Positions 4,764-57,811 of a stretch of 64,000 nt of DNA are shown here, piece after piece. The stretch lies in contig JAICQP010000001.1 of NCBI GenBank assembly GCA_025937815.1, positions 3,891 through 67,890 on the forward strand, given 5' to 3'. The notes under the pieces are model-generated. The model was not told the DNA's origin and made no database searches. It was given only the letters and a program-made list of their open reading frames with translations. The stretch comes from Gemmatimonadota bacterium (GTDB lineage Bacteria > Gemmatimonadota > Gemmatimonadetes > JACCXV01 > JAHWKZ01). Each line of letters begins with the position of its first letter. Positions within the stretch are counted from its first letter, which is position 1. Position numbers and translations under genes: made by a program.

Positions 4764-4840
<77 letters not shown>

Positions 4841-10788: not shown

Positions 10789-10866
10789 GCCCCGGTAGCT
10801 CAGTTGGACTAGAGCAGCGGCCTTCTAAGCCGCGGGTCGGGGGTTCGAATCCTCCCCGGGGCGCCA
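10789..10866 (+). tRNA. tRNA-Arg (anticodon TCT)
   Basis: Acceptor GCCCCGG/CCGGGGC, D-arm GCTC-AGTTGGACTA-GAGC, anticodon loop CTTCTAA, T-loop TTCGAAT, CCA encoded. Confidence 0.8.
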
Positions 10867-10899: not shown

Positions 10900-10977
10900 G
10901 GTGGGCGTAGCTCAGCTGGTTAGAGCACCAGGTTGTGGCCCTGGGGGTCGGGGGTTCGAGTCCCCTCGCTCACCCCA
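10900..10977 (+). tRNA. tRNA-His (anticodon GTG)
   Basis: Extra 5' G (G-1), anticodon loop TTGTGGC, T-loop TTCGAGT, CCA encoded. Confidence 0.8.
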
Positions 10978-11086: not shown

Positions 11087-11162
<76 letters not shown>

Positions 11163-41386: not shown

Positions 41387-41940
41387 CGGCGCGCAAGGCC
41401 TCCACGCGCGGCCGCGGCTCGCGGACCGGTTGCCTCGAGACCGGGGCGATCGTCGTCTTCGCGCTCGTCCTCGGGGCCTTCGCCGCCTCGACATGGATGC
41501 GCCACGTCGGTGGCAACGACGCAGAGAGGAGAGCGCCGGTGGCGGAGCCCGCCGACTCGGTGTCTCGACCCTCGCTCGAGCGCGCCAGGATCCGGGTCCA
41601 GGTGCGGAACGGCTCGGGGATCCCGGGGGCCGCCGCCCAGGTCACCGAGTACCTGCGCGATGCGGGGTTCGACGTGGTCGACTTCGGCAACGCCGAGGTG
41701 TCCGACGAGCCGCGCACGGTGGTGATCGACCGCGTCGGTGCGCGCGAGCGGGCGCTCGAGGTGGCGGCCGCCCTGCGCGGAGTCCCGGTCCGCTCGGAGG
41801 TCGACACCTCGCTCTACCTCGACGTGACCGTCCTCGTGGGGAGGGATGCCGCGGCGATCATGGAGGGTGGGTCGGCGGGAAGCCGCGACACGCCGGGCTG
41901 GCGCCGCTGGCTCACGCGGCTGAGGACCCTGCTGCCGTAG
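41383..41940 (+). CDS. LytR_C (LytR/CpsA/Psr C-terminal) domain membrane-anchored protein
   Basis: GTGA overlap; N-terminal TM then IRVQVRNGSGIPGAAAQVTEYLRDAGFDVVDFGNA... LytR_C pattern. Confidence 0.6.
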   Translation: MTARKASTRGRGSRTGCLETGAIVVFALVLGAFAASTWMRHVGGNDAERRAPVAEPADSVSRPSLERARIRVQVRNGSGIPGAAAQVTEYLRDAGFDVVDFGNAEVSDEPRTVVIDRVGARERALEVAAALRGVPVRSEVDTSLYLDVTVLVGRDAAAIMEGGSAGSRDTPGWRRWLTRLRTLLP

Positions 41941-41993
41941 TCCCCCGGCTCTGGGGCCGGATGCCACGCGCGTCTCCTTGCGGCACCCGATAG

Positions 41994-42023
41994 CTGCCGC
42001 TATCATAGCGGCCCCGTTTTTCC
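41994..42023 (+). terminator. rho-independent terminator
   Basis: GCCGCTAT-c-ATAGCGGC hairpin followed by CCCGTTTTTCC. Confidence 0.5.
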
Positions 42024-42048: not shown

Positions 42049-42711
42049 ATGGCGCAGAAGAAGAAGGGCTCCGGAGCGTCCCGGAAGTCGACCAAGGCCG
42101 CCAGGAAGGGCTCTCGGAAGAAAGCCGCCGCGAAGTCCGCGAAGAAGTCGGCTCGAAAGAAGGCCTCGGGCAAGAAGAAGGCCCCCGGCAAGAAGGCGGC
42201 CCGCGGAAAGGCGCCCGTCAGGAAGGCCGCTCGCGGTGCCGCGCGCAAGCCGGCGGGGAAGAAGAAGGCTGCCGCGAAGCGGACGCCGGCCCGCAAGAGC
42301 GCGAAGACGACGGCCCGCCGGGCGACCCGCAGCGCCGCGATCCGGCCGGCCAAGGCGAGGGCGACCAAGCGCGCGCCGGGCAGGGACGCCGCCTTCTTCG
42401 ACCACTTCCGCCAGAAGCTCCTCGATCAGCGCCAGCAGATAACACGCCGGCTGGACGAGCTGCGCGACGAGCTGCGGGGACTCGAGGAGACCCCCCGCGA
42501 GCTCGAGGAGTGGGCGCAGGAGGAGAAGGACCGCGACATCCTGATCCGGCTCGAGGACCGCGAGACCGAGGAGCTGAGGAAGATCCAGGCGGCCCTGGGC
42601 CTCATCGATCAGAAGGAATACGGGTACTGCCAGGTGTGCGGGAAGCCGATCCCGCGCGCGCGACTGGAGGAGCTGCCGACCGCCTTCCGGTGCGTGGACT
42701 GCACTCCCTGA
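42049..42711 (+). CDS. DksA/TraR-family C4 zinc-finger protein with ~115-aa Lys/Ala-rich histone-H1-like N-terminal extension
   Basis: C-terminus CQVCGKPIPRARLEELPTAFRCVDC (C4 finger) preceded by coiled-coil; N-terminus KKAAAKSAKKSARKKASGKKKAPGKKAARGKA... Confidence 0.7.
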   Translation: MAQKKKGSGASRKSTKAARKGSRKKAAAKSAKKSARKKASGKKKAPGKKAARGKAPVRKAARGAARKPAGKKKAAAKRTPARKSAKTTARRATRSAAIRPAKARATKRAPGRDAAFFDHFRQKLLDQRQQITRRLDELRDELRGLEETPRELEEWAQEEKDRDILIRLEDRETEELRKIQAALGLIDQKEYGYCQVCGKPIPRARLEELPTAFRCVDCTP

Positions 42712-42730: not shown

Positions 42731-43699
42731 TTGATCACGGTCACGCGATTCGATCCGGGCTCCCCGGCTCGAGGCCATCCGGACCTGGCGGCTTCCGGCT
42801 GGACCCGCGACTCCGCGGCCACCCTCTGGATCGACCTGGAGGCGCCGACCGCAGACGAGCTCCGGCTCCTCGAGGACCCGTTCGCCTTCCATCCGCTGGC
42901 CATCGAGGACTGCCTCACGCCCGAGCACCAGCCGAAGATCGAAGACTTCGGGCCGTACCTGTTCCTCATCTTTCGCGGCGTGGATCTCGACCCTCCTGGC
43001 GAGCGCTTCGAGACGATCAAGCTGGCCGCGTTTCTGGGCCCCAACTACCTGATCACGTACCACCGCCGGCCGATGCGCAGCGTGGCGGCCGTGCTGACCA
43101 AGTACGCCCACGACGAAAAGGGCGATCTCTTCCGCGGCGTGGACTATCTGCTGTACGAGATCCTGGACCATCTGATCGAGTTCTACTTCCCGGTGCTCGA
43201 GAGGATCGAGCAGGAAATCGAAGTCGTCGAAGAACAGATCTTCACCGCCGACGACGAAAACACCCTGGACGCGATCCTGGGCCTCAAGCGCAGGGTGATG
43301 GAGATCAAGCGAGCGCTGACTCCGCACCGCGAGCTCTTCGGCCGGATCGCGCGCAACGAGTTCGAGGAGATCACTCCTCAGACCGTCGTGTTCTACCGCG
43401 ACCTCTACGACTCGACCTATCGGCTGGCCGAGGTGGCCGACTCGTATCGTGACGTCCTCAGCGGCACGCTGGACGCCCACATATCGATGATCAGCCACCG
43501 GTTGAACGAGGTCATGAAGGTGCTGACGATATTCGCGACCATCATCCTGCCATTGACCTTCATCGTGGGCGTGTACGGGATGAACTTCGACTACATGCCC
43601 GAGCTCCACTGGCGCTACGGCTATTTCATCCTCTGGGGGATCATGCTGGCGGTCACCGGAGGCATGCTGATCTACTTCCGCAGGCGGAGGTGGATATGA
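42731..43699 (+). CDS. corA: magnesium/cobalt transporter CorA
   Basis: YGMNF (GMN) motif before final TM helices; CorA-like cytoplasmic domain. Confidence 0.85.
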   Translation: MITVTRFDPGSPARGHPDLAASGWTRDSAATLWIDLEAPTADELRLLEDPFAFHPLAIEDCLTPEHQPKIEDFGPYLFLIFRGVDLDPPGERFETIKLAAFLGPNYLITYHRRPMRSVAAVLTKYAHDEKGDLFRGVDYLLYEILDHLIEFYFPVLERIEQEIEVVEEQIFTADDENTLDAILGLKRRVMEIKRALTPHRELFGRIARNEFEEITPQTVVFYRDLYDSTYRLAEVADSYRDVLSGTLDAHISMISHRLNEVMKVLTIFATIILPLTFIVGVYGMNFDYMPELHWRYGYFILWGIMLAVTGGMLIYFRRRRWI

Positions 43700-57463: not shown

Positions 57464-57811
57464 ATGCCGACGTACGTTTACCGCTGTCGCGATTGCGACC
57501 GGCAGTTCGAGCACTTCGAGAAGATGACGAGCCGCGTGAAGATGCGGAAATGCCCGACCTGCGGCGGCCGTGGCGAGCGCCAGATCTCGGGCGGGGCGGG
57601 GTTCCTGTTCAAGGGCGAGGGCTTCTACATCACCGACTACCGCAGCGAAGAGTACCGCTCGAAGCACAAGGCCGAGACAGAAAAGGCCGCTCCGCCGGGC
57701 GACGCCGCGGATGCCAAGCCGGCCGGTCCTGAGTCGGCGGCCGACAAGACGGCGGCCAAGCCGGTGGCGACGAAGAAGTCCCGCGGGGGATCGAAGAAGA
57801 AGAAGCGATGA
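57464..57811 (+). CDS. FmdB-family zinc-ribbon protein with Lys-rich tail
   Basis: MPTYVYRCRDCDRQFE...CPTCGG (CxxC...CxxC) pattern; basic C-terminus. Confidence 0.65.
   Translation: MPTYVYRCRDCDRQFEHFEKMTSRVKMRKCPTCGGRGERQISGGAGFLFKGEGFYITDYRSEEYRSKHKAETEKAAPPGDAADAKPAGPESAADKTAAKPVATKKSRGGSKKKKR

Follow-up and report, generated by a model that had tools for sequence, protein, structure and literature searches.

A DksA/TraR-family protein with a conserved polycationic N-terminal tail in Gemmatimonadota

Introduction

What does a DksA-like module do when it is preceded by a long, highly basic tail? The question is raised by one gene in a 64,000-nucleotide stretch of Gemmatimonadota bacterium DNA (contig JAICQP010000001.1, positions 3,891 to 67,890; hereafter, the window). 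A first-pass annotation, made from the sequence alone, described the product as a histone-H1/AlgP-like, Lys-Ala-rich tail followed by a coiled coil and a C4 zinc finger of the DksA/TraR type, proposed that the tail could tether a modulator of transcription initiation to DNA, and held that this was not a standard architecture. The open reading frame (ORF) itself is as described:

42049..42711, + strand: coding sequence of the tailed DksA-like protein, 220 amino acids plus stop (ORF list and sequence)

To our knowledge, there is no experimental work on how transcription is regulated in Gemmatimonadota. As set out below, the protein has a DksA fold, a conserved coiled-coil tip and a conserved, compositionally constrained tail. 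On balance, and with some reserve, we favor reading it as a nucleoid-tethered regulator of the RNA polymerase (RNAP) secondary channel, of the type of Streptomyces DdbA, and as the Gemmatimonadota version of DksA.

Results

The C-terminal core

The core, residues 112-220, comprises a DksA-type coiled-coil hairpin and a C4 zinc ribbon:

42388..42609, + strand: antiparallel coiled-coil hairpin with helix 114-147, loop 148-151 and helix 152-187 (AlphaFold2 model; equivalent to E. coli DksA 34-107)
42616..42708, + strand: C4 zinc ribbon, C194, C197, C215 and C218, CxxC-x17-CxxC (Pfam PF01258)

Pfam zf-dskA_traR (PF01258) matched residues 190-218 with 39.6 bits against a gathering cut-off of 24.9 (E=5e-10), and DksA_N, at 26.6 bits, fell just below its cut-off of 27. 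A phmmer search of PDB sequences returned E. coli DksA (1tjl, E=8e-12), P. aeruginosa DksA2 (4ijj, 1.4e-11) and 2KQ9 (1.4e-7). The top NCBIfam models were all DksA models, yet their equivalog cut-offs were not reached. Alignment with proteobacterial DksAs placed the core on E. coli DksA 32-140 without gaps at an offset of +80, which brings E. coli C114, C117, C135 and C138 onto C194, C197, C215 and C218.

Columns 194, 197 and 215 were invariant Cys in the family alignment. The fourth zinc ligand was His in 34 of 105 Gemmatimonadota homologs (within P0034-P0094), giving a Cys3His variant of the DksA finger, C-x2-C-x17-C-x2-H (e.g., ...FRCIEHSG); the protein under study has the C4 form.

The AlphaFold2 (AF2) model of the core, built with a 54-sequence multiple sequence alignment (MSA), had pLDDT values of 83-98, lower at the tip. 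In Foldseek superpositions over 105-106 columns it fitted 4ijj_A at 1.1 Å, 1tjl_A at 1.3 Å and the RNAP-bound 5vsw_M at 1.1 Å, and its fit to 2KQ9 was poor (rmsd 10.9 Å). The coiled coil is as long as that of E. coli DksA and could therefore carry its tip equally far into the channel. A single-sequence AF2 model was discarded, having rendered the coiled coil as one unbroken helix.

The alternative that the finger derives from some other zinc-ribbon family was ruled out, because the Pfam, NCBIfam, PDB and fold matches were all to DksA/TraR. The family assignment made in the first-pass annotation thus stands: judged by its homology and modeled fold, the C-terminal half is genuinely a module of the DksA/TraR family. 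No second copy was found by tblastn in the window. A degenerate-pattern scan of contigs hit at least six Gemmatimonadota loci among the matches listed, and matched canonical gammaproteobacterial DksA too.

Departures from canonical DksA

42490..42516, + strand: coiled-coil tip, T148-P-R-E151-L-E-E154-W-A156 (gapless alignment with proteobacterial DksAs and P. aeruginosa DksA2)

The DxxDxA signature that one would look for at the tip of a DksA (D71, D74, A76) is not there. It is replaced by ExxExA (E151, E154, A156), with the Ala kept and both Asp changed to Glu, and this motif was invariant in 101 Gemmatimonadota homologs. Pairwise HMMER and MAFFT alignments to E. coli DksA alone shift the register here by one residue; the family and DksA2 alignments support ExxExA. 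A156 is an invariant column of the family alignment. Conservation in the protein peaks in the block R150-E169, which runs from the tip through the first half of helix 2 and, with the exception of K160 (90-98%), is invariant to at least 98% among the 101 homologs.

Two further departures had no place in the first-pass description of the protein. First, it ends at P220, two residues past C218 (E. coli C138), and therefore has no C-terminal helix (E. coli 135-151); the alignment with E. coli DksA correspondingly ends at residue 139-140 of 151. Second, most of the residues that form site 2 for guanosine tetraphosphate (ppGpp) are lost. In E. coli DksA these are R91, K94, L95, K98, R129 and K139 (bioRxiv 10.1101/188680). 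At the +80 offset R91 and K98 are kept as R171 and K178, and the other four of the six are replaced (K94 by E174, L95 by E175, R129 by L209, K139 by T219). With neither the C-terminal helix nor these four residues, the core probably acts without DksA-ppGpp synergy of the E. coli type, and the tailed protein may well be independent of ppGpp.

A polycationic, disordered tail

42049..42381, + strand: polycationic, intrinsically disordered N-terminal tail, residues 1-111 (composition, AF2)
42157..42236, + strand: imperfect tandem DNA repeats in the tail-coding part, 18 bp x3 and 30 bp x2 (Tandem Repeats Finder, 82-83% matches)

The N-terminal half is as basic and as low in complexity as had been stated: residues 1-111 include 29 Lys (26%), 32 Ala (29%) and 16 Arg (14%), with a net charge of +45. 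Over residues 1-115 the counts are 34 Ala, 29 Lys and 17 Arg, and D113 is the single acidic residue. Elsewhere in the window, long ORFs average 1.9% Lys and reach at most 13 Lys per 111 residues, and the tail thus lies far beyond background. AF2 returned pLDDT values of ~50 and no secondary structure for residues 1-110, whether or not an MSA was supplied.

Two parts of the first description of the tail held in part. The repeats noticed in it are present as short imperfect tandem repeats, but do not form a regular array; the DNA is of low complexity, and the repeats fit growth and change of the tail through slippage. Likewise, the resemblance to histone H1 and AlgP holds in composition but not in profile searches: the tail had no Pfam match, and no H1, Hc2 or AlgP model was significant for the tailed protein. 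The best basic-protein model, NCBIfam hist_H1_lk_Burk, scored 14.3 bits (E=0.037) against a cut-off of 80, and precomputed matches to Pfam HC2 (PF07382) occurred in just a few homologs. The likeness is thus compositional and is not evidence for common descent.

As to whether Lys-rich tails are a habit of the lineage, the 64-kb window held one other, weak case, the C-terminus of an FmdB-type zinc-ribbon protein. This CxxC...CxxC ORF (115 aa, 57464-57811, + strand, just 5' of argS) ends in the short Lys-rich stretch KKSRGGSKKKKR, the only other Lys-rich segment of the window.

The tail in Gemmatimonadota homologs

The first homolog search, which was biased to tailed proteins because the tail supplied query words, gave 326 homologs; among the ~105 closest, every match with a named source came from Gemmatimonadota/Gemmatimonadetes. 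Counting as a tail at least 50 residues with at least 30% Lys plus Arg, we found one in 81 of the 98 full-length (Met-starting) homologs from the phylum (83%). Across all 98, the N-terminal tail had a median length of 98 residues (range 12-163) and a median net charge of +43. Identity to the protein under study averaged ~43% in the tail and 83% in the core, where it ranged from 68 to 97% (80 homologs compared). A composition held while sequence varies is what marks a disordered region constrained by charge. By this pattern of conservation the tail is real and selected in Gemmatimonadota.

The N-terminus MA[QRTK]KKK recurs widely among homologs. In the nearest subclade, conservation is higher over the first ~10 residues (MA[QR]KKKGSG) than farther along the tail; a short functional motif there, or a constraint from translation initiation, could account for this. 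Near-perfect peptide repeats in some homolog tails, such as KKKATRKKKAT and AKKPA, fit evolution by slippage. In a sister subfamily (HELEEWAQEEK..., P0095-P0105 and P0123) the extensions are rich in Ala, Arg and Pro or poorer in Lys.

Other forms occur on the same conserved core: P0071, P0089 and P0093 have mixed-charge N-terminal extensions rich in Lys, Glu and Arg. In P0123, a 480-residue member of the sister subfamily, the gene call runs from LytR_C into the DksA-like gene, preserving the adjacency described below, and the linker/tail is rich in Arg, Ala, Ser and Gly, not Lys.

Reading frame and start codon

42038..42042, + strand: Shine-Dalgarno-like GGGAG, 6 nt 5' of the ATG (read from the sequence)

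A wrong start or frame, also foreseen in the first-pass annotation, would make the tail an annotation artefact. The region invites this reading, since its DNA is ~72% GC and other frames are open over the gene, with ORFs of 154 aa on the + strand and of 121 and 640 aa on the - strand (ORF list). Against it, GC at third codon positions (GC3) is 0.92 in the annotated frame, in the tail half and the core half alike; the other two frames give 0.57 and 0.70. The ATG at 42049, with its Shine-Dalgarno-like motif at -6, is the sole ATG, GTG or TTG between the in-frame stop at 41938 and codon 196, so that the core cannot be translated without the tail. The tail ORF and an MAxKKK start are kept in dozens of homologs from independent assemblies, and the identical 220-residue protein was called on three independent metagenome contigs. 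A wrong start or frame is thereby ruled out and the artefact effectively refuted.

Genomic neighborhood

41996..42022, + strand: terminator-like GC hairpin and T-run (GCCGCTATCATAGCGGC then CCCGTTTTTC) between LytR_C (stop 41940) and the dksA-like gene (consensus scan)

The gene lies in a conserved order, folB-folK-panB-panC-NTP_transferase-(HD/hypothetical)-LytR_C-dksA-corA-M14 peptidase-cmk-rpsA; in one relative corA and M14 are missing from this order, and cmk-rpsA comes directly after dksA. This housekeeping neighborhood suggests that the gene encodes the main DksA of the phylum.

The gene for the Mg2+ transporter CorA (42731-43699 in the window, + strand) starts 14-28 nt after the dksA-like gene in four of the five neighborhoods examined, and co-transcription of the two is possible. 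The hairpin could be either a terminator of the upstream gene or an element of the 5' leader. It is overlapped by a weak promoter-like TTGCGG-N17-TATCAT (41978-42006), seen by eye and below the scan threshold; the promoter scan found no sigma-70 consensus site. An Rfam scan of the window at the gathering threshold found four tRNAs only, none near the gene (4764-4837, 10789-10863, 10901-10974 and 11087-11159, all + strand), three of them clustered.

Discussion

How the tailed protein might work

In the reading that we favor, the coiled-coil hairpin of the core, like that of the small regulator DksA, would enter the RNAP secondary channel and bring its acidic tip (E151/E154/A156) near the active site, from where the core would modulate initiation and possibly elongation. 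Putative binding in the channel, with an effect on the stability of open complexes, has indirect support in the modeled fold and in the extreme conservation of the tip. The tail, like the N-domain of DdbA, would bind the DNA phosphate backbone non-specifically and would thereby hold a high local concentration of the regulator at the nucleoid and at RNAP-DNA complexes. DNA binding and condensation by the tail are plausible given its charge and disorder and the precedent of DdbA, and the tethering first proposed from sequence matches what was found by experiment with that Streptomyces protein (PMC3643593). The tail may also supply binding energy that in proteobacteria comes from the elements missing here, the C-terminal helix and site 2.

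Several observations weigh against this reading. The protein lacks the C-terminal helix by which E. coli DksA touches the beta lobe/i4 (SI1) insertion and whose deletion from E. coli DksA disrupts binding to RNAP (10.1101/188680). The substitution D74E abolishes the function of E. coli DksA (PMC4010833), and both tip Asp residues are Glu in the Gemmatimonadota protein, although R. sphaeroides DksA tolerates the equivalent D80E (PMC4010833). RSP0166 of R. sphaeroides, which has a C4 finger, a tip Glu and no C-terminal helix, is not DksA-like and does not complement (PMC4010833). The NCBIfam equivalog models stayed below their cut-offs (TIGR02420, 81.4 of 115.5 bits; NF033459, 59.4 of 105; NF008045, 45.6 of 289). 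A genuine tail-less ortholog exists (P0067, 130 aa), located in the order HD-LytR_C-dksA-corA with 76 nt between genes, which makes the tail accessory and not essential to core function. Finally, such a polycation would be expected to bind RNA or polyphosphate (polyP) as well, and sequence cannot tell which polyanion is the partner.

Alternative explanations

In rough order of weight, the alternatives to a nucleoid-tethered regulator are a polyP or RNA partner, a core that is not DksA-like in function, a near-neutral tail, and the artefact already dismissed. In the first of these, the partner of the tail would be polyP or RNA/ribosomes, in the manner of AlgP, and would sequester, localize or regulate the DksA module in response to RNA load or polyP granules. 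In favor of this, the original isolate of Gemmatimonas was a polyphosphate accumulator, and the gene sits just upstream of cmk-rpsA. The lysine-rich C-terminal domain of AlgP is found on polyP granules, where coacervation with polyP has been proposed (PMC9239181), and DksA controls polyP accumulation in E. coli (Gray 2019; bioRxiv 10.1101/2020.03.11.988303). However, the sole experimental data on this architecture, those for DdbA, show binding and condensation of DNA, no polyP genes adjoin the gene in the neighborhoods examined, and no feature of the sequence favors one polyanion over another. We consider a polyP or RNA partner unlikely, if the most serious of the alternatives.

A second explanation, to which we give about the same small weight, is that the core is not a functional equivalent of DksA, as with RSP0166 and Atu0905, and that the protein is mainly a basic nucleoid-associated or nucleic-acid-binding protein built on a zinc-ribbon/coiled-coil scaffold. 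The two Glu at the tip, the missing C-terminal helix, the retention of two of six site-2 residues and the unreached equivalog cut-offs all favor it, as does the precedent of RSP0166, which has the same three traits as its C4-fingered counterpart here and shows no DksA activity. Yet the core, unlike 2KQ9, fits DksA and DksA2 closely when superposed and keeps the coiled coil at full length, and its sequence match to DksA and DksA2 (E ~1e-11) is stronger than that to 2KQ9 (1e-7). Within the protein, conservation is strongest in the tip block, as expected of a working end, and D80E is functional in R. sphaeroides DksA. As for the missing helix, the SI1 insertion that it contacts is itself lineage-specific.

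Somewhat less probable again is that the tail is a largely neutral product of slippage that has no specific ligand and serves at most some general purpose, for instance to balance the acidic core or to help with solubility or stability. Its range of lengths (12-163 residues) and its ~43% identity would be expected of such a tail, and the tandem DNA repeats in the gene, the peptide repeats in homologs, the tail-less syntenic ortholog and the Ala/Arg/Pro-rich or mixed Lys/Glu tails of some relatives point the same way. What argues otherwise is that 83% of homologs retain the tail, with cores down to 68% identity, at a tight composition and a median charge of +43, and that 26% Lys is upheld against a strong GC bias (1.9% Lys elsewhere). 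In addition, basic tails on DksA arose independently in Actinobacteria, Gammaproteobacteria and Gemmatimonadota, and the DdbA tail has a demonstrated activity.

Implications

If the tailed protein is indeed the DksA of the phylum, regulation through the secondary channel is possible with a Glu-Glu-Ala tip, in the absence of a C-terminal helix and probably of ppGpp site 2, and by a protein permanently joined to a strong polycation. Seen alongside DdbA and the tailed DksAs of Gammaproteobacteria discussed below, this would suggest that tethering to the nucleoid or to another polyanion is common and has been overlooked, and is not an oddity of Streptomyces. Basic tails on DksA are found in Streptomyces, in several lineages of Gammaproteobacteria (Alcanivorax among them), and in the majority of sampled Gemmatimonadota. 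A bolder generalization, which we think improbable, is that such disordered tails are an unrecognized and repeatedly evolved means of coupling a secondary-channel regulator to a cellular polyanion, and that in Gemmatimonadota the tail functionally replaces the C-terminal helix and site 2, yielding a stringent-like control gated by polyanion and independent of ppGpp. RNAP occupancy by the regulator would then be set by the state of the nucleoid or by polyP or RNA levels and not by ppGpp.

No new category of system is opened by these results, which describe an independently evolved fusion of known design. Its specifics deserve attention, namely the invariant ExxExA tip, the lack of a C-terminal helix, the loss of most site-2 residues and the phylum-wide retention of the tail, and may be of use in studies of the stringent response, of nucleoid-associated proteins and of disordered polycationic tails.

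Comparison with known systems

The closest known design is that of Streptomyces coelicolor DdbA (SCO2075), which joins a 93-residue, Lys-rich, histone-H1-like N-domain to a DksA-like C-domain (Aldridge 2013, NAR; PMC3643593). The N-domain binds supercoiled and linear DNA in electrophoretic mobility shift assays and condenses DNA as seen by atomic force microscopy, the C-domain binds no DNA, and overexpression of full-length DdbA suppresses the antibiotic-production defect of relA, in keeping with a DksA-like genetic behavior; orthologs were reported in streptomycetes only (PMC3643593). Both proteins have a Lys/Ala-rich, low-complexity N-terminal region followed by a DksA-like coiled coil and C4 finger, and in both groups tail length varies among orthologs.

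The differences are considerable. Against cores of a Streptomyces DdbA-type set, which was retrieved at 91% identity to the query and which stands in for SCO2075, the Gemmatimonadota core has 28% identity with an 8-residue indel around the tip, and full-length BLAST aligns the finger region alone. DdbA has a DxxD tip and a short C-terminal extension, KQKQERR, whereas the Gemmatimonadota protein has ExxExA and stops after the finger. DdbA is encoded near ftsZ and the Gemmatimonadota protein near LytR_C, corA and cmk-rpsA. Tail net charge also differs, with a median of +43 in Gemmatimonadota and values of ~0 to +15 in 120 sampled Streptomyces relatives. Orthology with DdbA was rejected on the core identity, the gaps at the tip and the differing neighborhood (close Streptomyces relatives compared); at 28% core identity, the Gemmatimonadota fusion arose independently. 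When the actinobacterial-looking P0176 was used as query, it retrieved Acidimicrobiia proteins with mostly weakly charged extensions.

An exhaustive search with the core only, unbiased by the tail, covered 1.84 billion representatives and gave 8896 relatives. Basic N-terminal tails, defined here as extensions of at least 50 aa with a net charge of at least +15, occurred in 19 of the 139 best cluster representatives from outside the Gemmatimonadota clade; most of the 19 were otherwise canonical DksAs, having the DPxDRA tip and the C-terminal helix. A tailed DksA was also present in a cultured isolate, Alcanivorax sp. 1008, which was obtained apart from the 139. Its 384-residue ORF (L011 3425-4579, NZ_JAFMPS010000015.1), whose start may be overextended, encodes ~250 residues of AlgP-like Ala/Lys/Pro-rich sequence and a canonical DksA with a DPNDRA tip, a C4 finger and a C-terminal helix. 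We found no description of gammaproteobacterial DksAs with Lys/Ala-rich tails in the literature searched.

In these gammaproteobacterial proteins (e.g., Alcanivorax sp. 1008 and the metagenomic P0144-P0239) the basic low-complexity tail directly precedes the core, as it does here. Their cores, in contrast, are canonical, having the PYxxxxxEEYMN globular segment, the DPxDRA tip and the C-terminal helix, and are 31-38% identical to the protein under study. Given this identity and these canonical cores, the tails were gained separately.

Among untailed relatives, E. coli DksA (1TJL, 5VSW, 7KHI) and P. aeruginosa DksA2 (4IJJ) share with the Gemmatimonadota protein the fold, the coiled-coil length, the C4 ribbon and an acidic-x-x-acidic-x-Ala tip; residues 1-32 of E. 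coli DksA, the N-terminal part of its globular domain, are replaced by the polycationic tail. RSP0166 and Atu0905 (2KQ9) share the C4 finger and the lack of a C-terminal helix, and RSP0166 the tip Glu as well, but neither has a basic tail, and the Gemmatimonadota coiled coil, unlike that of 2KQ9, is full length and fits true DksA. AlgP of Pseudomonas, Hc2 of Chlamydia and the BpH1-type proteins of Burkholderiales share the Lys/Ala/Pro-rich composition of the tail. To call the architecture nonstandard was therefore an overstatement, given DdbA in 2013, the 81 of 98 Gemmatimonadota homologs, the 19 of 139 representatives and Alcanivorax: the two-part design of DksA and basic tail was already known, and recurs in several bacterial groups.

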